Notes: generated by a model not told the origin, from the letters alone. DNA of 28,600 nucleotides from a virus (IMGVR_UViG_3300027563_000033:1-28600), one strand, 5' to 3'. Numbered from the stretch's first letter, positions 5,107 through 28,474 are shown. Program-made: numbers and translations.

Positions 5107-5133
5107 AGTCCTGGGCATGACTAAAACTGCCTG
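5107..5133 (+). ncRNA. H-type pseudoknot motif, copy 1
   Basis: AGTC-CTGGGCAT-GACT-AAAAC-TGCCTG; 3 nt upstream of tRNA-Asn. Confidence 0.65.
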
Positions 5134-5136
5134 CCT

Positions 5137-5209
5137 TGCCCTATAACTCAGATGGTAGAGTGCCGAACTGTTAATTCGGATGTCCCTGGATCGAGGCCAG
5201 GTGGGGCAG
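5137..5209 (+). tRNA. tRNA-Asn(GTT)
   Basis: Cloverleaf: acceptor TGCCCTA/TGGGGCA, anticodon arm CCGAA-CTGTTAA-TTCGG, atypical T-loop ATCGAGG; no encoded CCA. Confidence 0.9.
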
Positions 5210-5249
5210 CGTGATATAATTATATAAAGATACCTACAAGGAGGATATC

Positions 5250-5894
5250 ATGGCAGCAAAAGGATCAGTAGAAGCAATCATCGAGGTTGCAAAAAAGGAA
5301 GTGGGCACAATTGAAGGCCCTAAAGATAACGAAACAAAGTATGGTGCATGGATCAAGGTTAACTTTCAGCCATGGTGCCAATCATTTGTTTCTTGGGCAG
5401 CATTTACTGCGGGAGTAAAATCATTTCCTAAGTCTGCATCAACAGTAGCAGCAGCAGACTGGTTTAAGAAGGCTGAGCGTTGGTCAGATGCTCGCAATGA
5501 TGATCCACAAGCAGGAGACTGGATCTATTTTGATTTCCCAGAAGATGGCGTAAATCGTATTTCCCATGTTGGTATTTGCATTAAGAATAATGGCGACGGA
5601 ACAATCCAAGTTATTGAAGGAAACACTTCAGGAACTGCCAAGGGAGATCAACGCAACGGAGGAATGTGCGTTGAAAAGACTCGTGGCTATGTAAAAAATA
5701 ACAAGAAGAAGTTGGTTAATGCTGTAATTGGTTGGGGTCGTCCAGTTTATGCTGGAGAAGAAAATGCTCCACTGCTAAACAAGTTGGCAGCAACACCTGT
5801 TAAGACAACATCAGCAGATGCTGCAAAGAAGTCCGTAAAGCCAGCAGTAAAGAAATCATCAGGTGGCGCAGCGAAAGGTTCCGTGGCCCTATAA
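5250..5894 (+). CDS. CHAP-domain peptidoglycan amidase (endolysin-like)
   Basis: PWCQSFVSW (Cys), HVGI (His) and IEGNT motifs; Lys/Ala-rich tail; AAGGAGG SD; TGATATAAT at 5212-5220. Confidence 0.85.
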   Translation: MAAKGSVEAIIEVAKKEVGTIEGPKDNETKYGAWIKVNFQPWCQSFVSWAAFTAGVKSFPKSASTVAAADWFKKAERWSDARNDDPQAGDWIYFDFPEDGVNRISHVGICIKNNGDGTIQVIEGNTSGTAKGDQRNGGMCVEKTRGYVKNNKKKLVNAVIGWGRPVYAGEENAPLLNKLAATPVKTTSADAAKKSVKPAVKKSSGGAAKGSVAL

Positions 5895-6112
5895 TGGAAT
5901 CAAATAAGAAAAGTTTATATAAGTCAATCACTTGGCCAGCAGTTCATATTTTGTTTGTTGGCACATTAGTCTATTTTTTTGAAATGGCTATTACTGGCGA
6001 GGCCCACTGGGAATATTCTGGTACATTTGCAATTATTTATACTCTATGTGAAATGTTGGGATTTTTTCTACATGAAAGAGCATGGAATAAGTTCGGAAAA
6101 GGAGTTAAGTAA
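5894..6112 (+). CDS. DUF2061-like small membrane protein
   Basis: KSLYKSITW...FFLHERAW pattern. Confidence 0.7.
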   Translation: MESNKKSLYKSITWPAVHILFVGTLVYFFEMAITGEAHWEYSGTFAIIYTLCEMLGFFLHERAWNKFGKGVK

Positions 6113-6219
6113 TGCGTATTAAAGTTATTCGTTTTGTTGTTAAAGTACTTGGGTATGAGTGGGGCGGAGACGCACTCAATGTACCAGTCTGGACAGTAAA
6201 AGCAAAAAAGAAGAAGTAG
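6112..6219 (+). CDS. small hypothetical protein (35 aa, MRIKVIRFVVKVLGYEWGG...)
   Basis: TAATG coupling and AAGGAG SD; fills the intergenic gap; below the ORF-track cutoff. Confidence 0.6.
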   Translation: MRIKVIRFVVKVLGYEWGGDALNVPVWTVKAKKKK

Positions 6220-6222
6220 CCT

Positions 6223-6408
6223 ATGGCACTGTACGAATATGATTGTATGCCATGTGCACAAAGATATATCAAGGAACGTTCTATTAAAGAAAATGATCCT
6301 GGATATACATGCGAGACTTGCAATCACACGCTAGTTCGTGTATACTCTAATGTAGGAGCAGTTTTCAACGGTATTGGATTTTATTCCACTGATAATAGAA
6401 AGAAATAG
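6223..6408 (+). CDS. FmdB-family zinc-ribbon protein
   Basis: MALYEYDCxxC...CxxC...F.G.GFYSTD. Confidence 0.85.
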   Translation: MALYEYDCMPCAQRYIKERSIKENDPGYTCETCNHTLVRVYSNVGAVFNGIGFYSTDNRKK

Positions 6409-6418
6409 GCAGTATACT

Positions 6419-6646
6419 ATGAAGACTATGATAAAAACACCTGAAGAAATTAAAGATTGGGTGCTTAAAGTAACCGATAGATGTGATTCTTGTGGAGCAG
6501 AAGCCCTTGTTAAGGTTGCTGGTTTAAATGGAGAACTTCTTTTTTGTGGTCATCACTACAACAAGATTATGGATAACCCTGAAGGATATAAAAAAATGAT
6601 GAAGTTTGCCATAACAGTAGTTGATGAAAGATCAAAACTAGATTAA
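6419..6646 (+). CDS. small Cys/His zinc-binding protein of actinobacterial type
   Basis: DRCDSCGAEA...LLFCGHH; the start could be 6428. Confidence 0.7.
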   Translation: MKTMIKTPEEIKDWVLKVTDRCDSCGAEALVKVAGLNGELLFCGHHYNKIMDNPEGYKKMMKFAITVVDERSKLD

Positions 6647-7492
6647 ATGATTAACTTTAATTATTTATTAAGGGGATCCTCTCGCAACCCATTAGAGTTA
6701 AGAGAAATATCTTCTAATCTTGAAACCATAGGGTATCAATCTGTTTTATTAACTTTTCATTCTAAATCTGCAGATTACTTTATAAAGGCAGCAGCAGCAT
6801 TGGTTTCTGGTGATAAAATAAAATACATGCTTGCTTTAAGGCCATACCACATGAGTCCACAATATCTAGCAATGGTTGTTAAAGCATTTGACGAAATAGA
6901 TAAAAACAGAATATCAATTAATTTTCTTGCTGGCGGAGTAGATAGTATGAAAGGTGAGCCAGAACAAACAGATATATATGGAAACACAGAAAGCCTAGAC
7001 TCCATAGTTAAAAGAACTGAGTTTGTTCGTCAATTTGTAGATCAATATAAATTTTACTCATTTACAAATAGTACTCCAGAACTTATTTTTAGTGGACACT
7101 CTGAATACACAATAGAGACTGCAAAAATTTTAAATGGAACTTCTTTATCAATGATAGATGACTACAGGAATAACATTGATAGATTTTCTGAAATAAAAAA
7201 CATTATGGTTTCTGTATGCCCAATAATACTAGATTCTGAGTTAGAAGCAGAAGAGTATAAAAAATTTTTACATGCAAAAAGTTACAGGTATGTGGATATG
7301 TCTATAATAGGAACAAGAGATTTTGTTAAAGAAAAATTACTTTTGCTAGAAACTGAAGGTATAACTGATGCAATGATTAATACCCATAGGTGGGAGTTTA
7401 ATGGAATGCCACATGAACTTAGTGAGAAGAATGATATACTAGTTAACGAGTTAATAAAAGAAATTTGTCATGAGAATGGAAAAATTAAATGA
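6647..7492 (+). CDS. luciferase-like flavin monooxygenase (LLM/SsuD-like, divergent)
   Basis: IKYMLALRPYHMSPQYLA...RISINFLAG resembles the LLM TIM-barrel N-terminal half. Confidence 0.7.
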   Translation: MINFNYLLRGSSRNPLELREISSNLETIGYQSVLLTFHSKSADYFIKAAAALVSGDKIKYMLALRPYHMSPQYLAMVVKAFDEIDKNRISINFLAGGVDSMKGEPEQTDIYGNTESLDSIVKRTEFVRQFVDQYKFYSFTNSTPELIFSGHSEYTIETAKILNGTSLSMIDDYRNNIDRFSEIKNIMVSVCPIILDSELEAEEYKKFLHAKSYRYVDMSIIGTRDFVKEKLLLLETEGITDAMINTHRWEFNGMPHELSEKNDILVNELIKEICHENGKIK

Positions 7493-8250
7493 TTATTCAG
7501 ATTATTGGTCTTCCAGGTTCAGGAAAGACAGAGTTAGCCAAGGCACTCAAAGAAAGAATTAATGCTATTCATCTTAATGCAGATGAGGTTCGTGCAACTG
7601 TAAATTCAGACTTAGGTTTTGCACCAGAGGATAGACTTGAGCAGGCTCGTCGTATGGGAGAGATGGCAAGGCTTATTGCTAAGCAAGGTGTTGCTCCTGT
7701 AATCGTTGACTTTGTATGTCCAACAGATTTAACTCGTGTAGCATTTGGCAAGCCAGATATTTTAATCTATATGGAAACAATTGAAGAAAGTAGATTTGAA
7801 GATACTAATAAAATGTTTGAAGTCCCAGGTAATTTTGACATGGCCTTTATTAGTCATGAGTGGGACGCAAACGAAAAAGCAACAGAAATTATTAATCAGT
7901 TTGGCCTGCATGACTGGTCTGCACCTACAACTCTTATGCTGGGTAGGTACCAGCCCTGGCACGAGGGCCACCACGCCCTTTACAAGGAGGCAGGCAAGAG
8001 AACTGACCAAGTACTCCTTGGAGTCCGTAACACCTACAATACAAGCGAAAAGGATCCTCTTAAGTTTGATCAGGTAAAAGAATATATTGCCAAGGATGAT
8101 TTTATGGACGGGGCATTAGTACTAAGACTACCTAACATTACCAACATTGTATATGGTCGTGATGTTGGATACAAGATTGAGCAAGTAGATTTGGGGGCAG
8201 ACATTCATGCTATTAGCGCTACGCAAAAACGTAAAGAGATGGGCATCTAA
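7489..8250 (+). CDS. adenylylsulfate-kinase-like P-loop domain fused to a HIGH-superfamily nucleotidyltransferase
   Basis: GLPGSGKT, LNADEVR, DLGFAPEDRLEQARR, DFVCP (CysC-like); then GRYQPWHEGH and ISAT.KR. Confidence 0.82.
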   Translation: MIIQIIGLPGSGKTELAKALKERINAIHLNADEVRATVNSDLGFAPEDRLEQARRMGEMARLIAKQGVAPVIVDFVCPTDLTRVAFGKPDILIYMETIEESRFEDTNKMFEVPGNFDMAFISHEWDANEKATEIINQFGLHDWSAPTTLMLGRYQPWHEGHHALYKEAGKRTDQVLLGVRNTYNTSEKDPLKFDQVKEYIAKDDFMDGALVLRLPNITNIVYGRDVGYKIEQVDLGADIHAISATQKRKEMGI

Positions 8251-8299
8251 AGTCTGGAACTTCATCACTAAGCCAAGCAAAATTGAGTGGCCATCATGA
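8207..8299 (+). CDS. possible overlapping 30-aa ORF (MLLALRKNVKRWASKVWNFITKPSKIEWPS)
   Basis: GGGGG SD at 8193-8197; its stop overlaps the next start as ATGA. Confidence 0.4.
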   Translation: MLLALRKNVKRWASKVWNFITKPSKIEWPS

Positions 8300-8499
8300 A
8301 TGTATCTAAACAAAGATCAGCACTAAAAGCCATTACATGGCGTATAATTGGAACAGCAGATACATTTGCTATTGCTTGGCTTATAACCAAAGAGCCAGTT
8401 ACAGCAGGTGCAATCGCAAGTTTCGAGGTAGTTACAAAAACAATCCTTTATTACTTCCATGAGCGTGGTTGGAATAAAGTTAGATGGGGGAGAAACTAA
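8296..8499 (+). CDS. DUF2061 membrane protein
   Basis: RSALKAITWRIIGT.DT...LYYFHERGW. Confidence 0.82.
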   Translation: MNVSKQRSALKAITWRIIGTADTFAIAWLITKEPVTAGAIASFEVVTKTILYYFHERGWNKVRWGRN

Positions 8500-8906
8500 T
8501 GTTTGAATATTATGTAAAGAAAGTAACAAAAGTCGTTGATGGAGATACCATTGATGTCGAAATTGATTTAGGTTTTGATATTTCTTTTAGTTCAAGAGTC
8601 AGACTGGCTGGTATTGATACACCTGAGTCTCGTACAGCAGACAAGGCTGAAAAGGCTTTAGGACTAGAAGCAAAGGCTTATTTGAAGCATGCTATTGACT
8701 CTGCTAAGAGTGTAGTTATTAAGACAGAAAAGATGGACTCTTCAGAAAAGTATGGTCGTATTCTTGGTTGGGTTTATCTTGATGGAGACACAGAATCCAT
8801 TAATGACAAGATGATTAATGATGGTCATGCTTGGGGATATATGGGAGAAACAAAGGTCAAAGACTTCGTAGCACTTGCAAAGGCTAGAAAGAAGTCTGGC
8901 AAGTGA
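8499..8906 (+). CDS. thermonuclease (SNase-like) family nuclease
   Basis: VVDGDTID, RLAGIDTPE and KYGRILG motifs; TAATG coupling. Confidence 0.9.
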   Translation: MFEYYVKKVTKVVDGDTIDVEIDLGFDISFSSRVRLAGIDTPESRTADKAEKALGLEAKAYLKHAIDSAKSVVIKTEKMDSSEKYGRILGWVYLDGDTESINDKMINDGHAWGYMGETKVKDFVALAKARKKSGK

Positions 8907-9529
8907 TCATAAAAAACATTTTAGAAAAAAATGTATACTATTATGAAAATGTTATACAGGATACAGCAAAGTTACTTGACGATATAGAAAAGATAGATCA
9001 TCTTTTAACACAAGAAACTGGTATTTCTAAGTGGTCTGATTGGACAGCATATCAGTCTACATATGCATTTGGAAAACAAAAGATGATTAGAGAACATCTT
9101 TTTGATAAAGATCATGAAGCGTATAGTCAGTGCAGAGATATTGAAAAGCAAATAACTGATGCAATACTATATGCATCAAAAGATTATGAGTCTCTTCATA
9201 CTGGACTAGATATTGGTATTCTCTGTCCAATGTCAATAAGCAAGTATTTTGTTGGAAGTCAGATGGGAAAACACACAGATACACATGATGACGATGAAGG
9301 AAAAACTATTTCGGTTGTTCTTTATCTAAATGATGATTATACTGGAGGAGAGATTGAGTTTGAGGACCAAGGTATTTTAGTAAAGCCAACTGCTGGAAGC
9401 ATCATAGTATTCCCGTCAAGGAAACCATACTTTCATGCTTCAAAGCCAGTACTATCAGGAGAAAAGTATATTGTTCCAGGGTTTTGGGAGAATAGAGTTA
9501 AATTTCAAACTGGATGGCAAAATGGATGA
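8903..9529 (+). CDS. 2OG-Fe(II) oxygenase (prolyl-4-hydroxylase-like)
   Basis: HTD...SVVLYLNDDYTGGEI.F...H...KY. Confidence 0.88.
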   Translation: MIIKNILEKNVYYYENVIQDTAKLLDDIEKIDHLLTQETGISKWSDWTAYQSTYAFGKQKMIREHLFDKDHEAYSQCRDIEKQITDAILYASKDYESLHTGLDIGILCPMSISKYFVGSQMGKHTDTHDDDEGKTISVVLYLNDDYTGGEIEFEDQGILVKPTAGSIIVFPSRKPYFHASKPVLSGEKYIVPGFWENRVKFQTGWQNG

Positions 9530-9851
9530 GTTTGATGAAATAGATAGACTTATTCTTAATGGTGGTATAGAGTTTGCAGGCAAAGATTCAGAAACTGGAG
9601 AACTTCTATACAGGCCTACAGATAGGCTAAAAGAAATTGATTCAAGACTTAGTGAGGACCTATCTGTTTACTTTTCAGATATAACCCTTATACTTTGGGA
9701 GAAAAAGTTTTTAGATATGGACATAACTGAAAAAGATCCTCTTGTAAGATTGGCTGAAAAATCTTTTGATCCTAATGCCATAAGGTCTTTAGAAAAAAAT
9801 GAAAGAGTAGTGATTGAACAAATAATCAAGGCTCTTTTTGATAAAAACTGA
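9522..9851 (+). CDS. hypothetical protein
   Basis: Start MDEFDEIDRL overlaps the end of the upstream gene. Confidence 0.7.
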   Translation: MDEFDEIDRLILNGGIEFAGKDSETGELLYRPTDRLKEIDSRLSEDLSVYFSDITLILWEKKFLDMDITEKDPLVRLAEKSFDPNAIRSLEKNERVVIEQIIKALFDKN

Positions 9852-9875
9852 TATACTAGTAAAATAGGAGCCTTA

Positions 9876-13447: not shown

Positions 13448-13459
13448 TATAATAGATAA

Positions 13460-13574
13460 CATTCCGATATAAGACTTTAAAAGGTTTTACAACGGATGCT
13501 CCTATGAGTGGAGAGTTAGCAGGAGTCGAACCTTCGTGGCTAATAGACCTGAGCAGTCGTCTATAAACTGCTTA
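13460..13574 (+). ncRNA. candidate structured small RNA (~115 nt) ending in pseudoknot copy 3 (13543-13574)
   Basis: TATAAT at 13448-13453, three consecutive hairpins, then ATAGAC-CTGAGCAGTC-GTCTAT-AAAC-TGCTTA. Confidence 0.5.
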
Positions 13575-14151
13575 TTTTTGTACATGCAAAAAGTGTTATT
13601 GCATATCGTGTCCCGTTATAAATATCTTTGACACCATGAGCATACTCTTCAGTCCCTGGATGAATTACCATATCGCCAGACTTTGGCTTGTACTGTAAGT
13701 TTAGTTTTGGGTAATAGATCTCTCCACCATCGTAGTTATCATTTAGATATAAGACCAATCCATAATGAATTTTTGTTTCTATAACTTCAGGGCTGTCGTC
13801 AAAATGAACTGGCATACCCTTACCATCAGACCTTATTAAAGCATCAATGCTTGTTAAAAAAAGATTTTCTTTCGATATTTCTAACATTAACTCTTCTGCT
13901 CTTTGCATAAAATTGTTTTTATTTTTTAAATATTCTAATGCTGCAAGCCTTTTTGTATTTTCACTAAATAATTCTTCTATATTATTTTCTGATGGAAGTT
14001 GGATTAATTTATCATTAAAATACTCAGAAGAGATAAAATTTTTATAATTTACCTTATTGTTTAAATCAATACATTTAAAGATTGAATTAATTTCATTTTC
14101 AGAAAGGAAATTATTAACAATTATTATTTCATTATTAAAAGGTTTTATCAT
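13561..14151 (-). CDS. 2OG-Fe(II) oxygenase
   Basis: HFD...LYLNDNYDGGEIYY...HGV...RY. Confidence 0.88.
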   Translation of the reverse strand: MIKPFNNEIIIVNNFLSENEINSIFKCIDLNNKVNYKNFISSEYFNDKLIQLPSENNIEELFSENTKRLAALEYLKNKNNFMQRAEELMLEISKENLFLTSIDALIRSDGKGMPVHFDDSPEVIETKIHYGLVLYLNDNYDGGEIYYPKLNLQYKPKSGDMVIHPGTEEYAHGVKDIYNGTRYAITLFACTKISSL

Positions 14152-15939: not shown

Positions 15940-16067
15940 TGCCAAAGAAAAAAGCAGCAGCATTTAACCCTATTCAGATTAAAGATGGTTGGATTGTAAG
16001 ACTATACAAAGATGGTCGTATTAAGTCTAAGATTGCACCATACGAAGTCAAGCATCCTAAAAAATAA
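15939..16067 (+). CDS. small basic protein (42 aa, MPKKKAAAFNPIQIKDGWIVRLYKDGR...)
   Basis: TAATG coupling; below the ORF-track cutoff. Confidence 0.65.
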   Translation: MPKKKAAAFNPIQIKDGWIVRLYKDGRIKSKIAPYEVKHPKK

Positions 16068-16070: not shown

Positions 16071-16098
16071 TGGGTAGTTTTAAGTCATACCCAGGACT
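16071..16098 (-). ncRNA. H-type pseudoknot motif, copy 2
   Basis: AGTC-CTGGGTAT-GACT-TAAAAC-TACCCA on the - strand, just after the stop at 16104. Confidence 0.65.
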
Positions 16099-16103: not shown

Positions 16104-16238
16104 TTACTTGCGCTTAGTAAAACTAAACATCTTTTCTTTTGCATTACTTGCTGCCTGCTTGAATCCATAAGCATAAGATCCAATCATCAATCCAACAATT
16201 GCTGTTGAATGTGCTAAATAAAACATTGCACTTCTCAT
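16104..16238 (-). CDS. small membrane peptide (44 aa)
   Basis: AAGGAG SD within the end of katG; one hydrophobic segment. Confidence 0.55.
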   Translation of the reverse strand: MRSAMFYLAHSTAIVGLMIGSYAYGFKQAASNAKEKMFSFTKRK

Positions 16239-18302
16239 TTACTTTTTCTCCTTAATAAATAGATCAGCATTCATTACCTTTGTCCATGCTGAAACAAAAT
16301 CATGAACAAACTTTTCCTTGGCATCATCTGATGCATATACTTCTGCAATTGCTCTAAGTTCTGAGTTAGAAGCAAGGATAAGATCTACACGAGGTACATC
16401 TCCTGCTTCGTTAGCATTGGTGTACGATAATAGTTTAACTAAATAACTATTGTCTAACTTGTTGTCAGTTAACATTCTCATTCCAGATAAAAGAACAACC
16501 ATGTCCACTGTTGTTAATCCAAGAAGGTTAGACTTTTCTACCAACAAGACCTCTGCAGGTGCAGTAATACTTGGATGAATGTAGTTACGGAATGCATCAA
16601 ACTTTGGCTCAAGTACTGCAAATGAATCAACATCTGTCTGCTCCTGAGTTGCATCGCCACGACTGAACTTAGCGCCAATTACTATACCAATACCACTATT
16701 TGCTGCAGCAACCTGAACTCCAACTAATCCAGCAAACACTATAAGGTCTGCAAGAGATACATCGAAGTCATTCTTTATTTCATTAAGAACAGAAACAACT
16801 CTGTTGATTGCCTCATGATCATTTACTTCCCATGTGTTCTGAGGAGCAAGTACAACACGAGCACCATTAGCACCACCACGCTTATCTGTTTTGCGGAATG
16901 TTGATGCAGAAGACCAAGCAGTTGTTACTAGATCAGAAGAAGATAAGCCAGATGAAATAATTCTTTCCTTAATTGCATCTACATCTTCTTGTGTTAAACT
17001 ATCTCTGGTTACATTGCCAACTGGATCTTGCCAAATTAATACTTCAGACGGAACTTCCTTACCAAGATATCTTGCGATAGGACCCATATCTCTGTGTGTT
17101 AACTTAAACCATGCACGAGCAAAGGCATCTGAGAAGTAATCAAAGTCTTCAAGGAATCTTCGAGAGATCTTCTCATACTCTGGATCAAACCTTAATGCAA
17201 GGTCTGCTGTTGTCATAACTGGAGCATGGAACTTGCCCTCAACATGTGCATCTGGAACTAAATTAGCAGCAGACTCATCTGTTGGAATCCATTGTGTTGC
17301 ACCAGCAGGAGACTTTGTTTGTGTCCAATCATACTTAAATAATAACTTAAGGTATGAGTTGTCCCACTTAGTAGGAGTTGCAGTCCATGCACCTTCAATA
17401 CCACTTGTAATTGTGTCTTCTGCATTACCCTTGCCAAATGAGTTCTTCCATCCAAGACCAAGGTCTTCAATAGTTGCTCCTTCTGGTGATGGACCAACAT
17501 GTGAAGGATCTCCAGCACCATGTGCCTTACCAAATGCGTGTCCACCAGCAATAAGTGCAACAGTCTCTTCATCATTCATCGCCATACGAGCAAAAGTTTC
17601 ACGAATATCTCGTGCAGAAAGTAGAGGATCTGGATTTCCATCTGGGCCTTCAGGGTTAACATAAATTAAACCCATCTGTACTGCAGCAAGTGGCTGCTCT
17701 AATTCACGATCACCTGTGTATCGTTCATTGGCAAGCCATTCCTTTTCTGCACCCCAGTACGTATCGTCTGACTCCCAAACATCTGCACGACCTCCACCAA
17801 AGCCAAATGTCTTAAAGCCCATGTTCTCAAGAGAAACATTGCCTGCAAGAATCATAAGGTCTGCCCATGAAATCCTCTTTCCATACTTCTGCTTGATAGG
17901 CCAAAGAAGTCTACGAGCCTTATCTAAGTTACCATTGTCTGGCCAAGAGTTTTGTGGAGCAAATCTGTGAAGACCTTCTCCAGCACCACCACGCCCATCA
18001 GTTGTTCTGTATGTTCCTGCAGAGTGCCAAGCCATGCGGATAAAGAACGGACCATAGTTACCGTAATCTGCAGGCCACCAATCTTGCGAGGTAGTTAAAA
18101 GTGCATTGATATCATACTTAATGGCATCAATATCTAAAGCATTAAACTCTTTAGCATAGTCAAAATCATCTCCCATAGGATCAGACTTTTCTGAATGCTT
18201 TCTTAATGATGATAGATCTAATTGATTAGGCCACCAGTCTTCATTTGTTGCAGCCTCTGTTGTGTATGTCTTGCCAGTATATGGACAAGTTACTTCGCTC
18301 AT
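16239..18302 (-). CDS. katG: catalase-peroxidase (C-terminal domain appears shortened)
   Basis: [16 protein letters not shown] (distal R/W/H), [25 protein letters not shown] (proximal His), [20 protein letters not shown]. Confidence 0.97.
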
Positions 18303-18420: not shown

Positions 18421-18422
18421 TG

Positions 18423-18495
18423 CACCCCTGGCAAGAATCGAACTTGCGACGCATGGCTTAGAAGTCCATCGTTCTGTCCACTGAACTACAGAGGT
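18423..18495 (-). tRNA. tRNA-Arg(TCT)
   Basis: Acceptor ACCTCTG/CAGGGGT, loop CTTCTAA, T-loop TTCGATT, A20 present. Confidence 0.92.
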
Positions 18496-18499
18496 AAAG

Positions 18500-18572
18500 T
18501 ATCTCCAACGGGATTCGAACCCGTGTTGCCACCGTGAAAGGGTAGAGTCCTAGGCCACTAGACGATGGAGAC
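18500..18572 (-). tRNA. tRNA-Glu(TTC)
   Basis: Acceptor GTCTCCA/TGGAGAT; anticodon arm CTACC-CTTTCAC-GGTGG; T-loop TTCGAAT. Confidence 0.93.
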
Positions 18573-18573
18573 T

Positions 18574-18647
18574 TGGAGCGAGTGACCAGAATCGAACTGG
18601 CACAATCAACTTGGAAGGATGATGCACTACCATTATGCAACACTCGC
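18574..18647 (-). tRNA. tRNA-Gly(TCC)
   Basis: Acceptor GCGAGTG/CACTCGC, U73 plus encoded CCA, loop CTTCCAA. Confidence 0.93.
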
Positions 18648-18651
18648 TTTG

Positions 18652-18725
18652 TACACCAGGTAGGACTTGAACCTACGATAGCCGAATTATGAGTTCGGTG
18701 CCTTAACCAACTTGGCTACTGGTGC
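18652..18725 (-). tRNA. tRNA-CAT, probably Ile2 (lysidine-type); elongator Met is possible
   Basis: Anticodon arm CCGAA-CTCATAA-TTCGG; C4-G69, C5-G68 and A73 fit TilS/IleRS determinants; lacks initiator features. Confidence 0.85.
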
Positions 18726-22560: not shown

Positions 22561-22577
22561 GCATCAAGTATATCAGG

Positions 22578-22648
22578 CTTCAGGTGAGGGAGTCGGACCC
22601 ACGTCGTCGGTTTCGGAAACCGCAGTACTGCCGTTATACGAACCTGAA
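22578..22648 (-). tRNA. atypical tRNA with CCG anticodon (nominally Arg)
   Basis: Acceptor TTCAGGT/ACCTGAA with G73; D-arm GTAT-AACGGCA-GTAC; anticodon loop TTCCGAA; T-loop TCCGACT; own TTGACA-18-TATACT promoter (22660-22689). Confidence 0.75.
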
Positions 22649-22997: not shown

Positions 22998-23018
22998 CAT
23001 ACTATTATATCAGATCCA

Positions 23019-23488: not shown

Positions 23489-23588
23489 ATATCAATTATA
23501 CCATTCGGCGAAAAAATTGTCAAGTCTTTAAAGTTCGGCGCAAAATAGAGGTAACAAACCTTCCTATGCCCTACACGGGCACTAGTGG

Positions 23589-23795: not shown

Positions 23796-24235
23796 ATGTT
23801 TGCCCACTTTCTTAAGTTACATAGCCCGTGTGCTGGTCTGACGTTCTGCAAGGTATCTGAGCCACCCTTTGCAATAGGAACAACATGATCGATATGCAAA
23901 CCTTGCTCCCAGCCCTTGACCCCACATTTTCGGGGAGCCAGAAGATCAATGCCTAATCCACATAAGTAACATATATCCCCATAGGTAGAGATAACCTGGG
24001 ATTCTTTATAGTGGTTCGTAATACTTGCCCTACGTCGCCGATTCTTAGATCTTTCTCGCTCTCTTACCAGATCAAGGTTTGAAGCACGATACTTAGCAGT
24101 TACAGAACGGCGATTTTTATTGGCATATCGTAATCTATTGTACAGACTGGATGCAGCCAAACACTCAACACATGGTTTAGTCTTATGGTTATGGTGTTTG
24201 CGATAACCAGCATAGGTTCCACAGTTAGGATACAT
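23792..24235 (-). CDS. HNH endonuclease
   Basis: CYLCG...HIDHVVP.AKGG.D..QNVRPAH..CN; N-terminal CGT..GY..H...C..C zinc module. Confidence 0.9.
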   Translation of the reverse strand: MYPNCGTYAGYRKHHNHKTKPCVECLAASSLYNRLRYANKNRRSVTAKYRASNLDLVRERERSKNRRRRASITNHYKESQVISTYGDICYLCGLGIDLLAPRKCGVKGWEQGLHIDHVVPIAKGGSDTLQNVRPAHGLCNLRKWANI

Positions 24236-24377
24236 CGTCTTTAAAGAAGTCTATACCCACATACCACTTAAAAAGATATAGGCCTATCTCCCATTGGTGT
24301 TTGACTGGATAGCCCCAGTTATGCAGATATATCCCAATAGAGTAGTTGGAGGTCATAGTGCCATAGTGTAGTTTCAT
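24225..24377 (-). CDS. hypothetical protein (50 aa)
   Basis: ATGA overlap; aromatic-rich. Confidence 0.55.
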   Translation of the reverse strand: MKLHYGTMTSNYSIGIYLHNWGYPVKHQWEIGLYLFKWYVGIDFFKDDVS

Positions 24378-24568
24378 ATAGCCTCATAGTCAGGATGGTC
24401 TAATGGAGTAGGTGCAGTGATAAGGCACTTACACTCCATGCATTGGGCATCATCCAATAAATACCCTGCGATTTCATAGGTTTGTGGATCGAACTCTACA
24501 GTTAACCTTAATAGTATTGAGTCACAACAAGGACAAACAGGTGTAGGGATGCCTCTGATATCTAACAT
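24374..24568 (-). CDS. zinc-finger protein, leaderless
   Basis: CPCC...CMEC...TAPTP; TTGACA-17-TATGAT 6 nt upstream. Confidence 0.7.
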   Translation of the reverse strand: MLDIRGIPTPVCPCCDSILLRLTVEFDPQTYEIAGYLLDDAQCMECKCLITAPTPLDHPDYEAI

Positions 24569-24588
24569 ATATCCATCATATCATAGAG

Positions 24589-24708
24589 TTATCCACATGT
24601 CAAACATAGTTATCCACAATGTACTTATTGGTCAGTTAAGGTACATTTGAGTAGGAAATAGGGTTTGGAATGTACCTTTTGTAATAGTTATCCACAGGTT
24701 TATCCACA
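24589..24708 (+). promoter_or_regulatory. four perfect DnaA boxes (TTATCCACA)
   Basis: At 24589-24597, 24610-24618, 24688-24696 and 24700-24708, all in the same orientation. Confidence 0.85.
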
Positions 24709-24746
24709 GATTGATCTTACTGATTATATATTTAGACATTCTAGAA

Positions 24747-24772
24747 GTGGAGTGAAGTGGAGGATAGTGGAG
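24747..24772 (+). promoter_or_regulatory. MraZ-binding-like triple repeat
   Basis: GTGGAG-tgaa-GTGGAG-gata-GTGGAG, exact 10-bp period. Confidence 0.6.
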
Positions 24773-24814
24773 ATTGGGGCGCTTTTAAAGAGGCGTTCGT
24801 AATGTCTTGCGGCA

Positions 24815-25443
24815 AAACCTTCACATCCCCAAACCTAACAAACCTTCAAACCTTCAAACCTCATATCCCCGCAGCGCATGATACCATAGATATAATGGTT
24901 TGTCAAGTCCTTTCAAACCTTAAAACCCCATAAAAAAATCTCCCAAAACCAGGGAGAAATTGTCGATAATCGTAATGTTTTTTTAACAAACCTTTATAGT
25001 ATTTAAAGAAACCAGGACATAATGGTTTGTTATTACCATAGGGTTAATTGTGTATACTTTAGATCCCCGCTTGCAGCGTCCTTAACAGGATAATGATTCA
25101 TTTGTGGCGGGGGAGCAGAAGGAAAGAAAGCCTTAAGAGTTATAACACTATACAACATACCAGATATAGCACTCATTGCTTCATTAAACATTACAGAGTC
25201 AGAAGGAGAGTCATGGCGATGTGAGGTTTGTCTATTTAGTTGAGCAAAGTGATCTCTTGGCATAATATAATTATAACATGGTTTGACAAACCTGGTTTGA
25301 TATGATATAAGGTTTGGGGAAATTAAGGTTTGGATCGTAATGTTCTGCTGGGGGAAAGTTTTGGAGGTTCGTAATGTCCTGGTTTGGGGATTTTTAGGTT
25401 TGGTTCGTAATAAGGTTTAAAGGTTTGAAAGAGTCACCGCCCC
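24815..25443. repeat. AAACC(T)/(A)GGTTT arrays in inverted orientation, with GGGG...CGTAA bipartite repeats (origin-like)
   Basis: AAACC cluster on the left, GGTTT cluster on the right; 17/18 inverted repeat at 24910-24927 and 25414-25431. Confidence 0.65.
25033..25263 (-). CDS. hypothetical protein, leaderless
   Basis: TGtTATAAT 6 nt upstream of the ATG. Confidence 0.55.
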   Translation of the reverse strand: MPRDHFAQLNRQTSHRHDSPSDSVMFNEAMSAISGMLYSVITLKAFFPSAPPPQMNHYPVKDAASGDLKYTQLTLW

Positions 25444-25475
25444 GTTCCAGCCCCGCAGGGGCCAGAACAGAAGGC

Positions 25476-25736
25476 TTAGTCTCCGTCTAACAAATCTGCA
25501 ATGTCCTCAAACCCTGTATCCTCAACATCCAAACCTTCAATGAACAAATCAAATGTTTCGTTTATGTATTGCTCTAGTGTAGGTGTGTGATTGATGATAC
25601 CCTCGGCAAATGCGAAAGCAAGTGGCAAACCTAAATCGTTGTACTCAAAGAAGTCTGACATTTCGTCATCTCCTTTGTACTGAATCCATAGTTGTCCTAG
25701 GATTAGTGCCTTGTTCTCAAAGGTTGTTGTAAGCAT
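25476..25736 (-). CDS. hypothetical protein (YNDLGLPLA motif)
   Basis: GGAAGG SD before MLTTTFENK. Confidence 0.7.
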   Translation of the reverse strand: MLTTTFENKALILGQLWIQYKGDDEMSDFFEYNDLGLPLAFAFAEGIINHTPTLEQYINETFDLFIEGLDVEDTGFEDIADLLDGD

Positions 25737-25923
25737 AGTTAGTACCTTCCTTAGTTTCTTTTGCTGACTCTGCGATTGTCTGTAATCTATTGTACACAAC
25801 ATTAGGCTGAGACTTTGCTAGGTATTCCCCGACTAATTCTAAATCAACTCTGAGGTCAGAAACCATGTTGCCTAACTTCATGGCTACCTTCTCCTCCTCT
25901 GTGACTCGTCTGCTTATACGCAT
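25717..25923 (-). CDS. hypothetical protein
   Basis: AAGGGAG SD before MRISRRVT; TGaTACAAT upstream. Confidence 0.7.
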   Translation of the reverse strand: MRISRRVTEEEKVAMKLGNMVSDLRVDLELVGEYLAKSQPNVVYNRLQTIAESAKETKEGTNYAYNNL

Positions 25924-25948
25924 AGTTCTCCCTTGTATCCATTGTATC

Positions 25949-25993
25949 AAAAAGTGGGGGAAAGAGCAAGCCCCACGCCTGCCCCTTCCACCC
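25949..25993 (-). terminator. probable Rho-independent terminator
   Basis: GGAAGGGGCAGG/CTTGCTCTTTCC stem followed by ACTTTTT on the - strand. Confidence 0.55.
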
Positions 25994-26015
25994 TATAATC
26001 TAGAGGACCCACTCC

Positions 26016-26381
26016 CTAGATCTGCGACAGGAAAACTGGTCGATAGGCTGCTACGAACAGGTCCCAATTGACTTGGATGTCTGAGCCCAGTTCATAGATA
26101 GTCTTAGTATTGAAGTCGATGATTACAGTGGTGTCCCAAAATTCATACTCATCGTTATTAATAGCATAGATACCAAACCCTGTCTCATCTAAGACTGAGT
26201 CTTGCGTAAGATAACTAATCATCATACGGGTACCATATGAGGCGTCTATCCACCGTGGCTTTGCATGCTCCAGGGCCATTGCGATATCACGCTGCCATTC
26301 GGTCTCACCCCAGTGACTGTACAGCACAACTGAAGGTTTAGTTAATGAGTCTTTAAATACATAGTTGATCCGTGCTCCCAT
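26016..26381 (-). CDS. hypothetical phage protein (MGAR...LYSHWG)
   Basis: AGGGAG SD before MGARINYVF. Confidence 0.72.
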   Translation of the reverse strand: MGARINYVFKDSLTKPSVVLYSHWGETEWQRDIAMALEHAKPRWIDASYGTRMMISYLTQDSVLDETGFGIYAINNDEYEFWDTTVIIDFNTKTIYELGSDIQVNWDLFVAAYRPVFLSQI

Positions 26382-26392
26382 TAGTTCTCTCC

Positions 26393-26485
26393 CTATCGTT
26401 TCGGTTCGTTGGTCCAGCCAGTGGCACCACCTAGTAGTGCTCCTAAAAACCACATAACAATAATTGCTCCAAAAATGATTTCCAT
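26393..26485 (-). CDS. small membrane peptide (30 aa)
   Basis: TAATG coupling; hydrophobic. Confidence 0.5.
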   Translation of the reverse strand: MEIIFGAIIVMWFLGALLGGATGWTNEPKR

Positions 26486-26631
26486 TAGTTCTCTTCCTTC
26501 CAGGATACAATTGATAGTTGGCTTAAAATTTCATTGCATAGGGCTTCTTCATCTTCTGCCTCTGCTTCATATTTAAAATGCATGTAATCTCCAGTGGGTT
26601 CAAAGATTACATCTACTCTATATTCGTTCAT
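26485..26631 (-). CDS. small acidic protein (48 aa)
   Basis: ATGA overlap upstream and TAATG downstream. Confidence 0.6.
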   Translation of the reverse strand: MNEYRVDVIFEPTGDYMHFKYEAEAEDEEALCNEILSQLSIVSWKEEN

Positions 26632-27071
26632 TTAGTTTCCAATCCTACTAGGGTCATTTCTTCAATGGTAGCACAATTAGGGCATTTTTCCAAATCCTGC
26701 TCTTGGAAGGCATCTCTAATAAGATTATCAGGGTCTTCCAATTCTGAGTCACAGGCCTCACAGTAGTACCATGGGATACCAACTTGGACCTGAATGGTCG
26801 TGTCAGGTGGGCAGGGTACCTCAGTGACAAAGTATCCTATTCTATTTACAAATCCCCAGCCGTTCCAGATATACAGACCACCGTCGTCACCGTCACCAAG
26901 CATCCAGATACGGTCTTCAGGGATAGACTTAACAAACTCTACCTCTGAGCCATATGTCTCAAACATATGTCCGTCAAATGAGGAGTTGGTTTCAAGGTGA
27001 TTCTTGATAGGCTTATAAGTGTTAAACCAATCCTCTTCAGTCATTTCGATAAAGCGTTCGTTAGTTGACAT
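26628..27071 (-). CDS. hypothetical protein with C-terminal zinc ribbon
   Basis: FETYG.E, G.GFVNRIGYFVTE.P, CEAC...CPNC. Confidence 0.75.
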   Translation of the reverse strand: MSTNERFIEMTEEDWFNTYKPIKNHLETNSSFDGHMFETYGSEVEFVKSIPEDRIWMLGDGDDGGLYIWNGWGFVNRIGYFVTEVPCPPDTTIQVQVGIPWYYCEACDSELEDPDNLIRDAFQEQDLEKCPNCATIEEMTLVGLETK

Positions 27072-27270
27072 CTTTACCTACAGGCTCGTATTGCTCATCG
27101 TAGATTAGGAAGTAGGCAACTGACAATGCTTCTGCATAGCCTTCTGCATAAGTGCGTTCCATAGATACCATAGCGTCACTATAGTCATCTTCTTCTTCCT
27201 CTTTGGCAATCTCGCTAAATTCTTTCCAAGCATCGTCAATCATGTCACGAAGCATTTCTTGTGGGGTCAT
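27061..27270 (-). CDS. acidic hypothetical protein
   Basis: GAGGAG SD, ATGA overlap. Confidence 0.7.
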   Translation of the reverse strand: MTPQEMLRDMIDDAWKEFSEIAKEEEEDDYSDAMVSMERTYAEGYAEALSVAYFLIYDEQYEPVGKDVN

Positions 27271-27518
27271 ACTTTGGTCTCCTCTATGTGTTTTCTGTCT
27301 ATAGATAAATTATACGTCATGCAGTATATATTTGTCAAGGCCTGCATGTATCCGTCTAGCCACTCACGTTCATCTGACTGGTCACAACGTTCTAACTTCT
27401 TTTCTGCCTCGACCATTTCAACTTTGAGATGTCCGTGCAATAGGTCGATTAATGGGATAGTTACATCTTCTAGAGCCTTCTCTAAATGTTCGGGGATGAA
27501 GGGATACTTATCGCTCAT
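27267..27518 (-). CDS. hypothetical protein
   Basis: AGGAG SD. Confidence 0.7.
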   Translation of the reverse strand: MSDKYPFIPEHLEKALEDVTIPLIDLLHGHLKVEMVEAEKKLERCDQSDEREWLDGYMQALTNIYCMTYNLSIDRKHIEETKV

Positions 27519-27669
27519 TGATAACTCCTAGTATATGTAGTACAGTATCAATCTCTGCTTCTTTAATCTTATAGAAATGATGTCCATTTACATAGTCAAT
27601 CTTTTCTAGGTCTTGTTGAAGGCTAATCAGGTGGATGTGTAGATATTCTTTGAGTGTGTTTAGGTCCAT
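27508..27669 (-). CDS. hypothetical protein (53 aa), leaderless
   Basis: TTGTAA-17-TATAAT 6 nt upstream. Confidence 0.6.
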   Translation of the reverse strand: MDLNTLKEYLHIHLISLQQDLEKIDYVNGHHFYKIKEAEIDTVLHILGVINER

Positions 27670-27672
27670 ATA

Positions 27673-27897
27673 TCAATTATAGGGGTTTGTGTTGATTTTT
27701 ACAACTGTACGGGGTGTGACATTGCTCACATCTGTAATGATAGGGGCATTGCCATCTGATACCCCGATATTAATTATATTAAAAGATCCACAGGGGCAAA
27801 GGGGTTGAAAATATTCAGACACATCTTTCAGGGTAGTGATCTCAATAAGAGCATCACAGTCAGTACATAGATAATCATACTTAGTCCAGTTCCACAT
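27673..27897 (-). CDS. zinc-ribbon protein
   Basis: YLCTDCD...CPCGS; TAATG coupling. Confidence 0.7.
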   Translation of the reverse strand: MWNWTKYDYLCTDCDALIEITTLKDVSEYFQPLCPCGSFNIINIGVSDGNAPIITDVSNVTPRTVVKINTNPYN

Positions 27898-28049
27898 TAG
27901 TCAAAGTACCCTTCTGCCCATAAGCCATCAAAGAAAGACATAGCCTTCTCCAGGCCATCTGTTACCTCAGAGGAGAGTCTACCTGATTTGATAGCATCTT
28001 CCATAGCATCTGTCATTACTGCAATATCAGTTTCAGTATAGCCTAACAT
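27897..28049 (-). CDS. hypothetical protein (50 aa, MLGYTETD...GLWAEGYFD)
   Basis: GGAGG SD. Confidence 0.65.
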   Translation of the reverse strand: MLGYTETDIAVMTDAMEDAIKSGRLSSEVTDGLEKAMSFFDGLWAEGYFD

Positions 28050-28189
28050 TCAATTGCCTCCATATATTTAATCATAGTATTAAGTGTTATGTGAATATAG
28101 CAATCACAATCATCTGATGTATCTCTGTCATCAAAATGTGCCAAGTTGTCATCATACATATAATCAATTAGTTCTTGTGATGTAATCAT
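28043..28189 (-). CDS. hypothetical protein (48 aa, CDC..H)
   Basis: TAAGG SD; overlaps the next gene. Confidence 0.55.
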   Translation of the reverse strand: MITSQELIDYMYDDNLAHFDDRDTSDDCDCYIHITLNTMIKYMEAIEC

Positions 28190-28242
28190 TCTGCCTTATC
28201 CGTTCTCATTGTTTGGGTCATGTATTAATTATCGCAGAGATT

Positions 28243-28358
28243 GGGGGAAATGTCAAGTCGTTCGTAAAGATTTTTAAGTTTGACATTTTTTGGGGGATTT
28301 GTAATTATCTTCGTAAAGATTTTTTAAGTTGACATTTTTTGAAAGTTGTGACCGCCCC
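28243..28358 (+). repeat. tandem ~49-bp repeat carrying the GGGGG...CGTAA motif
   Basis: TTCGTAAAGATTTTT(T)AAGTT(T)GACATTTTTTG occurs twice, then TTTGAAAG-tt-GTGACCGCCCC. Confidence 0.75.
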
Positions 28359-28368
28359 ATTTTCCTTG

Positions 28369-28442
28369 CGATTCCAACGGGACTTGAACCCGTAGCCTCT
28401 ACCGTGACAGGGTAGCGATCTAACCAATTGATCTATGGAACC
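28369..28442 (-). tRNA. tRNA-Asp(GTC)
   Basis: Acceptor GGTTCCA/TGGAATC with G73; anticodon arm CTACC-CTGTCAC-GGTAG; T-loop TTCAAGT. Confidence 0.93.
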
Positions 28443-28445
28443 TTG

Positions 28446-28474
28446 CGAGCAGTTTTAATTCTTGCTCAGGAATT
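28446..28474 (-). ncRNA. H-type pseudoknot motif, copy 4
   Basis: AATTC-CTGAGCAA-GAATT-AAAAC-TGCTCG on the - strand; 3 nt upstream of tRNA-Asp. Confidence 0.65.

Follow-up and report, generated by a model that had tools for sequence, protein, structure and literature searches.

A dispersed family of minimal H-type pseudoknots past phage stop codons: a possible 3′ cap for RNA

Four pseudoknots in a lake phage

We uncovered a predicted family of small H-type pseudoknots that typically lie just past the stop codons of phage genes, recur in unrelated phages plus bacterial and archaeal genome contigs, and might cap the upstream RNA at its 3′ end. A descriptor scan of the whole window, the 28,600-nt stretch of lake-phage DNA analyzed here, recovered exactly four copies, with the positions and stems that a sequence-only reading of this DNA had assigned to them: S1 AGTC/GACT and S2 TGGGCA:TGCCTG in copy 1, ATAGAC/GTCTAT and TGAGCA:TGCTTA in copy 2, AGTC/GACT and TGGGTA:TACCCA in copy 3, and AATTC/GAATT and TGAGCA:TGCTCG in copy 4. 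By chance, the descriptor would be expected to match 0.01 times on average (maximum 1; 100 first-order Markov resamples of the window), and a relaxed scan found no fifth copy in the window. The copies and their neighbors are as follows:

5107..5133, plus strand: pseudoknot copy 1 (core 5107-5132, with an optional sixth S2 pair at 5133)
5137..5210, plus strand: tRNA-Asn(GTT), 4 nt past the 5-bp core of copy 1
5212..5220, plus strand: extended -10-like site TGnTATAAT, a putative promoter ahead of the endolysin gene
13448..13453, plus strand: -10-like hexamer directly after the hsp20 stop, conserved in all 8 aligned sequences
13455..13542, plus strand: three conserved hairpins, part of a small-RNA cassette of about 115 nt
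13543..13574, plus strand: pseudoknot copy 2 (6-bp S1, 3-nt L2), the 3′ end of the cassette
16071..16098, minus strand: pseudoknot copy 3, at a convergent junction with a plus-strand ORF predicted to end at 16067
16104..16238, minus strand: 44-codon ORF downstream of the peroxidase-domain gene 18302-16239, its TAA 5 nt before copy 3
28368..28442, minus strand: tRNA-Asp(GTC), 4 nt past the 5-bp core of copy 4
28446..28474, minus strand: pseudoknot copy 4, 7 nt past the TAA ending at 28482 (8 nt to the 4-bp core)
28482..28598, minus strand: 3′-terminal part of a DUF932-family gene truncated where the contig stops; the full-length relative L602 carries Pfam PF06067

Three copies had been said to start 5-7 nt past a stop codon, and they do: copies 1 and 3 at 5 nt, the former behind the TAG (5099-5101) of a protease-like ORF (4169-5101), and copy 4 at 7 nt. 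The proposed gap of exactly 3 nt between knot and tRNA is right for the tRNA-Asn (5137) and tRNA-Asp (28442) of the window if counted from a 6-bp S2, but it varies in their orthologues, where the 5-bp core lies 2-5 nt from the tRNA for copy 1 (4 nt in 19 of 31) and 3-9 nt for copy 4. No gene on the same strand follows copy 2 or copy 3; copy 3 is trailed by an A/U-rich tail, and copy 2 lies about 97 nt past the hsp20 stop and overlaps the stop of a convergent ORF (14151-13561, minus strand).

The hexamer at 13448..13453 is the probable promoter of a small RNA ending in copy 2. Double changes are seen at 5 of the 26 pairs of the cassette hairpins (7 sequences), conservation of the cassette stops 1-2 nt beyond copy 2, and a different upstream gene is joined to the cassette in contigs from RNA runs. 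The stretch is present in freshwater metatranscriptomes as assembled contigs only, in which RNA ends are not visible; one such contig, X1, continues across copy 2.

Architecture of the family

The predicted family fold is an H-type pseudoknot of about 27 nt with a 4-bp S1 closed by C-G, an 8-nt loop beginning with CU, a 1-nt L2, a 5-bp S2 and a linker of the form NN-AAAC. Covariation of both stems, as previously proposed, is seen when the stems are left free in the scans: the loop-closing C-G of S1 stands in 83 of 91 unfiltered S1-free matches, its middle pairs are 97% and 96% paired with double changes, and its outer pair is open in 23 of 102. The conserved S2 comprises 5 bp rather than the 6 initially described, with a sixth U-A or U-G pair possible in 75 of 103 fully paired matches. 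Likewise, of the supposedly invariant CUG loop only CU is conserved (110 of 117), the next G being the first S2 base, which covaries. The AAAC linker is conserved as well (108 of 117 loop-free matches); the U after it was fixed in every search pattern, and its constancy among the matches is pattern-imposed. We infer a fold resembling that of the luteovirus and coremin knots, in which L1 would run through the deep groove of S2 and AAAC would line the S1 minor groove.

Association with the upstream gene

Judging by the gene ends compared, the knot goes with the upstream gene in the phage group of the window. It is kept in 45 of 49 distinct orthologous ends of the copy-1 gene, in 34 of them at exactly 5 nt past the stop and across 24 different spacer sequences, while what follows it is a tRNA in 31, a -10-like site in 9, a ribosome-binding site (RBS) in 3 and a convergent gene in 2; the -10-like site thus lies directly behind the knot in 9 of the 14 tRNA-less cases. 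In three knot-less orthologues tRNA-Asn begins 6-7 nt past the stop. For copy 4 the descriptor matches 55 of 58 distinct orthologous gene ends, the other 3 being recognizable variants, and the distance from stop to knot shifts from 5 nt to 9 nt or beyond. The 80 related loci and the window, a set anchored on one gene and hence not independent, together hold 46 non-redundant intergenic copies: each has a same-strand upstream gene, 7 point toward a convergent gene, and none comes after a divergent gene. Both scans and orthologue comparison support the structure, strand bias and tie to the upstream gene end posited by the sequence-only reading.

In the dereplicated viral set of 271 copies, the closest stop that ends an ORF lies at 5 nt in 47, 6 nt in 26, 7 nt in 18 and 4 nt or less in 11, as against at most 7 at any position in an antisense mirror control, and the position relative to the stop is tighter for the core than for the first paired base. 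There are 48 of the 271 without an ORF-ending stop inside 50 nt, and 112 are mid-operon, with an ATG within 40 nt downstream; such ATGs start mostly from about 19-20 nt on. Sense features flank both sides of 76 copies in a broad set of 122, the upstream side only of 25, the downstream side only of 15 and neither side of 6. The orientation signal is weak in the genome-contig set (27 vs 17 and 29 vs 24 of 51). A crude ORF caller gave 14 divergent-type and 11 convergent cases; on recheck, a small sense ORF ends within 40 nt in 14 of 18 copies called antisense upstream, and a sense ORF starts within 60 nt in 7 of 13 called antisense downstream. Promoters behind the knot belong to particular lineages: the broad set has 5 in 271, compared with 8 in a control window. 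A T4 late-promoter reading of the upstream TAA was rejected: TAAATA occurs near the knot in 17 copies, mostly as real ORF ends.

The release of a downstream tRNA by RNase P, invoked earlier, would apply to a minority context only: of 449 descriptor matches, 23 have a tRNA in the 60 nt downstream and 2 have one upstream. Other settings include type III hammerheads directly behind knots (two in L419, and L414 and L004), the intervening segment of the two-piece tmRNA gene of the crAss-like phage cr7_1, the order tRNA, knot, RBS in L236, scaffold/capsid genes that the knot precedes in Firmicutes phages (Lj771, StB12, B236), DUF2800 RNAs that it likewise precedes, and a chromosomal family with the stop codon inside the knot.

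Distribution

One variant alone occurs in about 7,200 IMG/VR stretches. Cultured carriers include Synechococcus phage S-RIM4, Arthrobacter phage Amigo, Lentibacter phage ICBM1, Lactobacillus phage Lj771 and the crAss-like cr7_1; hence, the knot is directly testable in phages of laboratory hosts. Tandem knots occur at L197/L198, L499 and L027. No neighbor gene is common to all carriers across phages, bacteria and archaea, and most of the flanking ORFs (52 + 52, both sides of the knot) have no PHROG. A BLAST match in Bacillus phage Page fell outside the descriptor and was left out of the counts. Rfam 15 holds no family covering the knot, even at E ≤ 10; matches to CRISPR repeats, on the opposite strand and far under threshold (E 0.07-9), were discarded. 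Judged from abstract openings, the literature surveyed holds no prior description in phages; a prior listing is possible in the 224-motif study PMC5737381 and among the 10,006 viral candidates of PMC10690425, six files of which had no match for four core words.

A possible 3′ cap and its alternatives

Our preferred reading, which agrees with the 3′-end protection proposed in the sequence-only reading and which we hold tentatively and place somewhat short of an even chance, is that the knot is a 3′ cap that would shield upstream RNA from 3′→5′ exonucleases. In ribosome numbering the stop codon occupies +4 to +6 and the knot begins from +12; a terminating ribosome would leave a knot at least 5 nt past the stop folded. 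A new 3′ end would then be made a few bases behind it, by RNase P at the tRNA for copies 1 and 4, by termination and trimming for copies 2 and 3, or by a hammerhead or an endonuclease acting in the G-poor tail. RNase P and hammerhead cleavage would both leave the knot on the upstream piece. The remaining tail of 2-9 nt would be too short for loading of PNPase, RNase II or RNase R, and the upstream mRNA or small RNA would thereby be stabilized. Persistence in orthologues whatever follows, the lack of a same-strand gene behind copies 2 and 3, and the position of copy 2 at the end of a non-coding cassette all favor such a cap, as do the clustering at 5-7 nt past stops, the excess of upstream-only over downstream-only sense features and of downstream over upstream tRNAs, the hammerheads directly behind knots, and the many carrier genomes with RNase J below cut-off. 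Against it, the closest characterized relative stops 5′→3′, not 3′→5′, decay (PMC6546385, PMC10520033), the 112 mid-operon copies would require a hypothetical cut, a 3′ cap has no evident use inside the cr7_1 tmRNA intervening segment, and the L236 order and the Firmicutes scaffold/capsid placement suit a 5′ shield; the stop codon inside the chromosomal knots also counts against it. The 5-nt edge itself may hold for structures past a stop in general, as the three knot-less orthologues with tRNA-Asn at 6-7 nt suggest.

It is conceivable, if on the doubtful side, that one minimal knot, with a core common to coremin and the prokaryotic and phage RNAs, acts as a two-way boundary, combining the 3′→5′ cap with a block to RNase J, RNase E scanning and post-termination ribosomes. 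If so, exonuclease-resistant RNA would have its first natural family in prokaryotes, and operons would have a general means of being split into independently stable units.

A purely coremin-type 5′→3′ shield, which would stop RNase J or hinder RNase E scanning as either arrives from decaying RNA upstream and so preserve downstream mRNA, pre-tRNA or structured RNA, appears unlikely, if worth serious weighing. The family conservation profile matches the mutational profile of Xrn1 stalling by coremin, as presented in PMC6546385, in its C-G closing pair, structure-only middle pairs, dispensable outer pair, free NN and essential AAC-U; moreover, H-type pseudoknots slow RNase E scanning in Escherichia coli in proportion to their length (PMC9943677). 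A shield would also suit the knots ahead of scaffold/capsid genes, DUF2800 RNAs and the tmRNA coding piece, the 15 of 122 copies with a downstream-only sense feature, and the lack of any match with two queries, a search of low sensitivity, in 5,426 E. coli genomes. Yet it explains no window copy well, as two point toward convergent genes and two would be severed from their tRNA by RNase P, and it sits poorly with the -10-like sites behind 9 of 14 tRNA-less orthologues. Of 50 carrier genomes, some of them MAGs that may be incomplete or mis-binned, only 25 score above cut-off for RNase J, which passes it in none of 8 Bacteroidota/Ignavibacteria carriers nor in one complete chromosome. Further, the hairpin hp2 that follows coremin is not enriched behind the knot (54 of 271 vs 76 and 95 at control positions), a BWYV-size knot with hp2 failed to stall Xrn1 in the assays given in PMC10321173, and a shield acting once ribosomes have left should have no need of a 5-nt gap. 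The 5′→3′ direction was absent from the sequence-only reading; it is the better fit for some contexts outside the window.

Less probable still is a boundary for ribosomes, with the knot at the mRNA entry channel when the stop is in the A site, where it would prevent sliding and re-initiation and let a tRNA, ribozyme or leader behind it fold undisturbed; this would amount to a pseudoknot form of the ribosome termination structure (RTS). It would account for the sharp 5-nt lower edge, tighter for the core than for the first paired base, and for the ATGs from about 19-20 nt on, which agree with de novo initiation; in bacteria the RTS signal centers 5 nt past stops, with an enrichment at the ends of operons and at convergent pairs (PMC7518266), and coremin stalls scanning ribosomes and promotes frameshifting. 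However, copy 2 ends a non-coding cassette and has its closest stop about 97 nt away, 48 of 271 copies lack an ORF-ending stop in the nearest 50 nt, the copy-4 spacing drifts, and simple exclusion with genome compaction explains the edge equally well.

That the knot is bound by a phage or host protein or by a small ligand, or is itself a small self-cleaving RNA, is improbable: although several bases are invariant (the C-G pair, CU, an A-U pair and AAAC) and the element is multi-copy, dispersed and at times in tandem, those bases are the ones demanded by a compact triple-stabilized knot, the unrelated phages, bacteria and archaea share no neighbor gene, and there is no expression platform, riboswitch-like placement, or Rfam riboswitch or ribozyme match. 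We give the least credence to a transcription pause or terminator with S2 as its stem, as suggested by at least 6 U in the 8 nt directly behind 52 of 271 copies (7 at +30; 17 for A), by knots at both convergent junctions of the window, where no hairpin terminator is listed, and by knots at operon ends ahead of -10-like sites, since the U tract is missing in four of five copies and a promoter-less tRNA 4 nt behind a terminator, or an ATG 20 nt behind one, would be silenced.

Were either the cap or the shield correct, the knot would be a sequence-defined stability element in prokaryotes and would explain how phage mRNA survives after a tRNA or ribozyme is cleaved off its end; it would also offer a very small portable stabilizer for synthetic RNA.

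Comparison with known RNAs

The preQ1-I riboswitch is a small H-type pseudoknot with an A-rich L3, and in this the family resembles it. The likeness drawn earlier goes no further: the family S2 has 5-6 canonical pairs, Rfam returns no match, the closest known RNA is the coremin exonuclease-resistant RNA (xrRNA), and the knot sits after stops and before tRNAs rather than ahead of queuosine genes, none of which occurs among 52 downstream ORFs scanned, most of them without a family; the window contexts are tRNAs and convergent genes.

Luteovirus -1 frameshift knots begin 5-6 nt past the A-site codon, much like the family spacing. Those of BWYV and PLRV are also minimal H-type knots with a C starting L1, an A-rich L3 and a 1-nt L2 (PMC10321173); in contrast, the family has an S2 longer than its S1 and follows strong stops (UAA in 88 of 116). 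With a slippery heptamer before 0 of 116 knots and no favored continuing frame (20 or more open codons in frame 0 in 33, in the other frames in 44 and 21), a stimulator of readthrough or frameshifting is not supported.

The REP elements of E. coli and the RNase III stem-loops of T7 are likewise dispersed, multi-copy and intergenic past stops, and stabilize upstream RNA against 3′→5′ exonucleases; they are simple hairpins, whereas the family is a pseudoknot of 27 nt, strand-specific and distributed across many phyla. RTS share the placement about 5 nt past stops, at the edge of the terminating ribosome, and the preference for operon ends and convergent pairs, and three of the four window copies have a structure so placed; as defined in PMC7518266, RTS are a signal in folding energy, with neither a sequence family nor a pseudoknot to them, unlike this family, which also ends a non-coding RNA. 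A tymovirus-type NCCA tail is not evident, as CCA occupies +2 in 14 viral copies out of 271, where local composition alone predicts 8.6, and in 2 out of 111 from genomes.

The nearest relatives are coremin (xrRNA-C), characterized by stalling a 5′→3′ exoribonuclease one base ahead of hp1, and its Watson-Crick type xrRNA-WCC of Dilweg et al. (PMC6546385, PMC10520033, PMC10321173). In the latter the loop has 4 nt, the first of them G, and S2 has 3 Watson-Crick pairs, as against the 8-nt loop starting with CU and 5-bp S2 of the family. With coremin the family shares a 4-bp S1 closed by C-G with a dispensable outer pair, agreeing with the hp1 definition of 3-5 bp with structure-only middle pairs (PMC6546385), a loop that begins with a pyrimidine and ends A-D, NN-AAAC followed by a U pairing with the penultimate loop A, and placement just past stops or between genes. 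Yet U occupies the second loop position in 110 of 117 matches and G in none, while the coremin consensus YG(NN)AD requires G (PMC10520033), and S2 is a full 5-6-bp Watson-Crick stem rather than 2-3 partly non-canonical pairs. A tRNA or other structured RNA might replace hp2 in a minority. As two defining coremin features, the loop G2 and the downstream hairpin, fail, the family is by its sequence pattern a coremin variant and not a member; it resides in DNA phages, bacteria and archaea, with putative nuclease resistance, and coremin in RNA viruses of plants and fungi. No structure of the coremin fold had been solved as of PMC10520033 and PMC10321173, and the hundreds of natural Watson-Crick variants of the family supply the covariation missing for it.

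Structure, covariation and distribution of the pseudoknot family

The ~27-nt H-type pseudoknot borne by the phage belongs to a real and widespread family. We scanned IMG/VR three times, each time letting a different part of the motif vary. When S2 was held constant (~7,200 stored stretches by estimate, 131 loci read), an identical 7-nt gap is seen in 93 of 140 matches, and the three inner S1 pairs are all formed in 85 of the 91 unique matches with that gap (shuffle mean 16, maximum 28), using 15 different Watson-Crick triplets. With S1 fixed (~3,200 stretches), the four free S2 pairs are all formed in 103 of 128 matches (shuffle mean 35, maximum 47). The claim made from the sequence alone, that both stems vary yet keep pairing, is thus borne out far above the shuffles. 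When both stems were fixed (~640 stretches), L1 was CU in 110/117 matches and the linker ended in AAAC in 108/117; the invariance at first ascribed to a CUG loop and an AAAC linker carries over to the family as a strongly preferred CU and AAAC. In an alignment of three window copies with 55/91 and 55/115 scan matches, 94.4% of cells are paired (slid controls, at most 45%) and double changes occur at eight of nine pairs, half of each row being fixed by the search pattern. The consensus comprises a 4-bp S1 with a C-G closing pair, an S2 of 5 bp plus an optional sixth, CU in L1, a 1-nt L2 and NN-AAAC in L3; the S2 originally drawn with 6 bp keeps its pairing, with a family-wide core of five.

A GTDB scan gave an estimated ~530 stretches, with full pseudoknots in contigs labelled Saccharibacteria, Bacillota, Bacteroidota, Cyanobacteria, Actinomycetota, Aminicenantes and Methanobrevibacter, these labels being those of MAG bins. 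Cultured carriers, by sequence, are cr7_1, Amigo, ICBM1, S-RIM4, Lj771, StB12 and B236, and Vibrio phage D454 carries a version with CC in L1. S-RIM4 infects Synechococcus and Amigo infects Arthrobacter; in Amigo the pseudoknot stands between ssb and tRNA-Gly. Two queries against 5,426 E. coli genomes returned no match, a weak test for 31-mers. We found no prior description in the literature searched; two motif surveys (PMC5737381, PMC10690425), with supplements wholly or partly unread, may list it.

The four copies in the window

The window is a complete 28.6-kb contig of a tailed phage coding for WhiB, Hsp20, an endolysin, four 2OG-Fe(II)-like genes and seven tRNAs, and its DNA is present in freshwater sequencing runs. 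From WhiB, we infer an actinobacterial host. The features considered here are:

5107-5133 (+): copy 1, ahead of tRNA-Asn
13448-13575 (+): ~115-nt structured small-RNA cassette with a putative promoter of its own, ending in copy 2
13543-13574 (+): copy 2, at a convergent junction
16071-16098 (-): copy 3, at a convergent junction
16239-18302 (-): 687-aa ORF with peroxidase domains (PF00141, domain match)
18422-18725: cluster of four tRNAs
22576-22648 (-): tRNA-Arg(CCG), weak Rfam score (43 bits)
28446-28474 (-): copy 4, ahead of tRNA-Asp

A descriptor scan recovers these four copies only, exactly where the sequence-only reading had placed them, against 0.01 matches expected from Markov resamples, and a relaxed score yielded no fifth copy in the window. 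In line with the novelty that reading had proposed, none of the four matches Rfam 15 at gathering thresholds or even at E ≤ 10. In the copy 2 cassette, three hairpins follow a conserved -10-like hexamer, and conservation ceases 1-2 nt past the pseudoknot; in relatives the cassette is found behind different genes. The 687-aa ORF is probably a catalase-peroxidase, an unusual cargo in a phage. The tRNA-Arg(CCG) lies immediately behind a -35/-10-like promoter and lacks a pseudoknot, as does the four-tRNA cluster. The contig start (271-515 and 1-601) is a low-complexity repetitive coding stretch with spurious isrG matches, for which a PHROG search returned no family.

Placement relative to genes, stops and tRNAs

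Among 271 dereplicated viral copies (out of 321 with enough flank), and counting the nearest stop that closes an open frame of ≥40 codons, this stop precedes S1 by 5, 6, 7, 8 or 9 nt in 47, 26, 18, 10 and 15 copies, respectively, and by 4 nt or less in 11; an antisense mirror control is flat. The positional bias of 5-7 nt noticed in three window copies recurs across these viral copies. Behind the pseudoknot, ATGs occur mostly from about 19-20 nt onward (within 40 nt in 112/271), and the tail is poor in G, with 239 G against 571 C over +2..+10. The placement ahead of tRNAs seen in two window copies recurs with the same orientation, and in a minority of cases: a tRNA lies within 60 nt downstream in 23 of 449 matches, always on the same strand, versus upstream in two. 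Both edges resemble ribosome footprints, as if the pseudoknot were packed as near as permitted; they imply that it should remain folded on translated RNA and are silent on the direction in which it acts.

Relatives of the gene preceding copy 1 were collected from 80 loci with 49 distinct gene ends, 45 of which bear the pseudoknot (34 at 5 nt; 24 different spacers). It is followed there by tRNA-Asn (31), an extended -10-like site (9), an RBS (3) or a convergent gene (2); the remaining ends have the tRNA alone (3) or a variant (1). Across these loci and the window, a sense gene lies upstream of all 46 non-redundant intergenic copies, with a tRNA (20), a sense gene (19), a convergent gene (7) and never a divergent gene downstream. 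The DUF932 gene of copy 4 keeps the pseudoknot at 55/58 ends, mostly at 5-9 nt, and because tRNA-Asp comes next in nearly every case, this set cannot separate the two sides. In a broad viral set (n=122), both sides qualify in 76 cases, upstream only in 25, downstream only in 15 and neither in 6, a milder upstream lean than among the copy 1 relatives.

RNA and peptide features beside the pseudoknot in other loci

In several GTDB contigs (L390, L395, L409, L427, L429, L434, L438, L443, L447, L453, L456, L467, L468, L483, L489, L490 and similar), a conserved ORF of ~20 codons (pattern MKRF..PR.AHC..GC), situated about 60 nt upstream, terminates in frame at the UGA of the pseudoknot loop. This ORF is preceded by an RBS and a promoter-like region of its own; a same-strand gene behind is often absent. 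Labels of these contigs include Aminicenantes, Desulfobacterota/Deltaproteobacteria, Actinomycetes and Spirochaetota, and some of the pseudoknots adjoin ArsR-like genes, as judged by eye. Three such peptides found no match in NCBIfam; the ORF might encode a leader peptide or a metal-binding micro-protein, or its UGA might be read as selenocysteine. Known RNAs are also seen nearby:

L679:1369-1725: permuted two-piece tmRNA gene of the crAss-like phage cr7_1
L036:285-445, L481:142-299; L419:1448-1502 and 1718-1772; L004:329-387; L261:161-227: DUF2800 RNA, type III hammerhead and pistol loci

In cr7_1 the pseudoknot sits in the intervening segment, 4 nt ahead of the coding piece. The DUF2800 RNA and the type III hammerheads begin a few bases 3′ of the pseudoknot, and a pistol ribozyme shares a short locus with another copy. 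In L485 and L486 the same ~30-nt sequence flanks the pseudoknot on both sides, like the spacer in a CRISPR-like array. A recurring hairpin-like unit, without a match in Rfam, stands behind at least three copies in the unrelated MAG contigs L410 and L419, and a short conserved hairpin with a G run lies directly 5′ of the pseudoknot in several freshwater phage contigs (L005, L045, L084, L099, L496).

Proposed role

The best reading of the sequence evidence, which we hold tentatively and with slightly less than even confidence, is that the pseudoknot would act as a 3′ cap for the upstream RNA, a role that accounts for each copy in the window. At copies 1 and 4, the RNase P cut would fall 4 nt past the pseudoknot; copies 2 and 3 would terminate transcription units at their convergent junctions, where the scan listed no hairpin terminator; and hammerheads directly 3′ of other copies would likewise leave the pseudoknot on the upstream piece. 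Counting against the 3′ cap are the many mid-operon copies, the copy within the two-piece tmRNA gene, the order tRNA, pseudoknot, RBS in the locus L236 and the placement ahead of scaffold and capsid genes, all of which favor a 5′→3′ shield, on balance an unlikely alternative. Against that shield, RNase J passes the TIGR00649 cut-off in only 25 of 50 hand-picked carrier genomes (out of 119 loci), and was not found in eight Bacteroidota/Ignavibacteria genomes, in three from Aminicenantes or in the complete chromosome that carries L409. A block to RNase J cannot be the general role; pseudoknots can also impede RNase E scanning, according to the part of PMC9943677 consulted. More doubtful still is a ribosome insulator, which agrees with the 5-nt edge and, as far as the consulted part of PMC7518266 goes, with the literature on ribosome termination structures, but does not fit copy 2. 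The 3′ cap, the shield and the insulator are mutually compatible. We regard a protein, ligand or ribozyme element as improbable, and a terminator or transcription pause as slightly more so.

Comparison with known RNAs

The sequence-only reading had likened the topology to preQ1-I while doubting a riboswitch: the doubt was well placed, and we reject a preQ1-I riboswitch, the window copies having no Rfam match to it. A frameshift signal was likewise rejected for the 271 viral copies, as was a CCA-tailed tRNA mimic for the pseudoknot. The class 3 plant xrRNA structure has a different fold, and the consulted part of its description (PMC12397905) does not mention phages. In the portions of the coremin literature consulted, the nucleotides required for stalling Xrn1 in this plant and fungal RNA-virus element (PMC6546385) are those conserved in our pseudoknot, barring loop position 2, where coremin requires G (PMC10520033) and the pseudoknot has U; further, the second hairpin obligatory in coremin (PMC10321173, PMC6546385) is not enriched behind the pseudoknot. 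Judged by these two sequence differences, the pseudoknot is not a member of coremin; by analogy, it may act like one.
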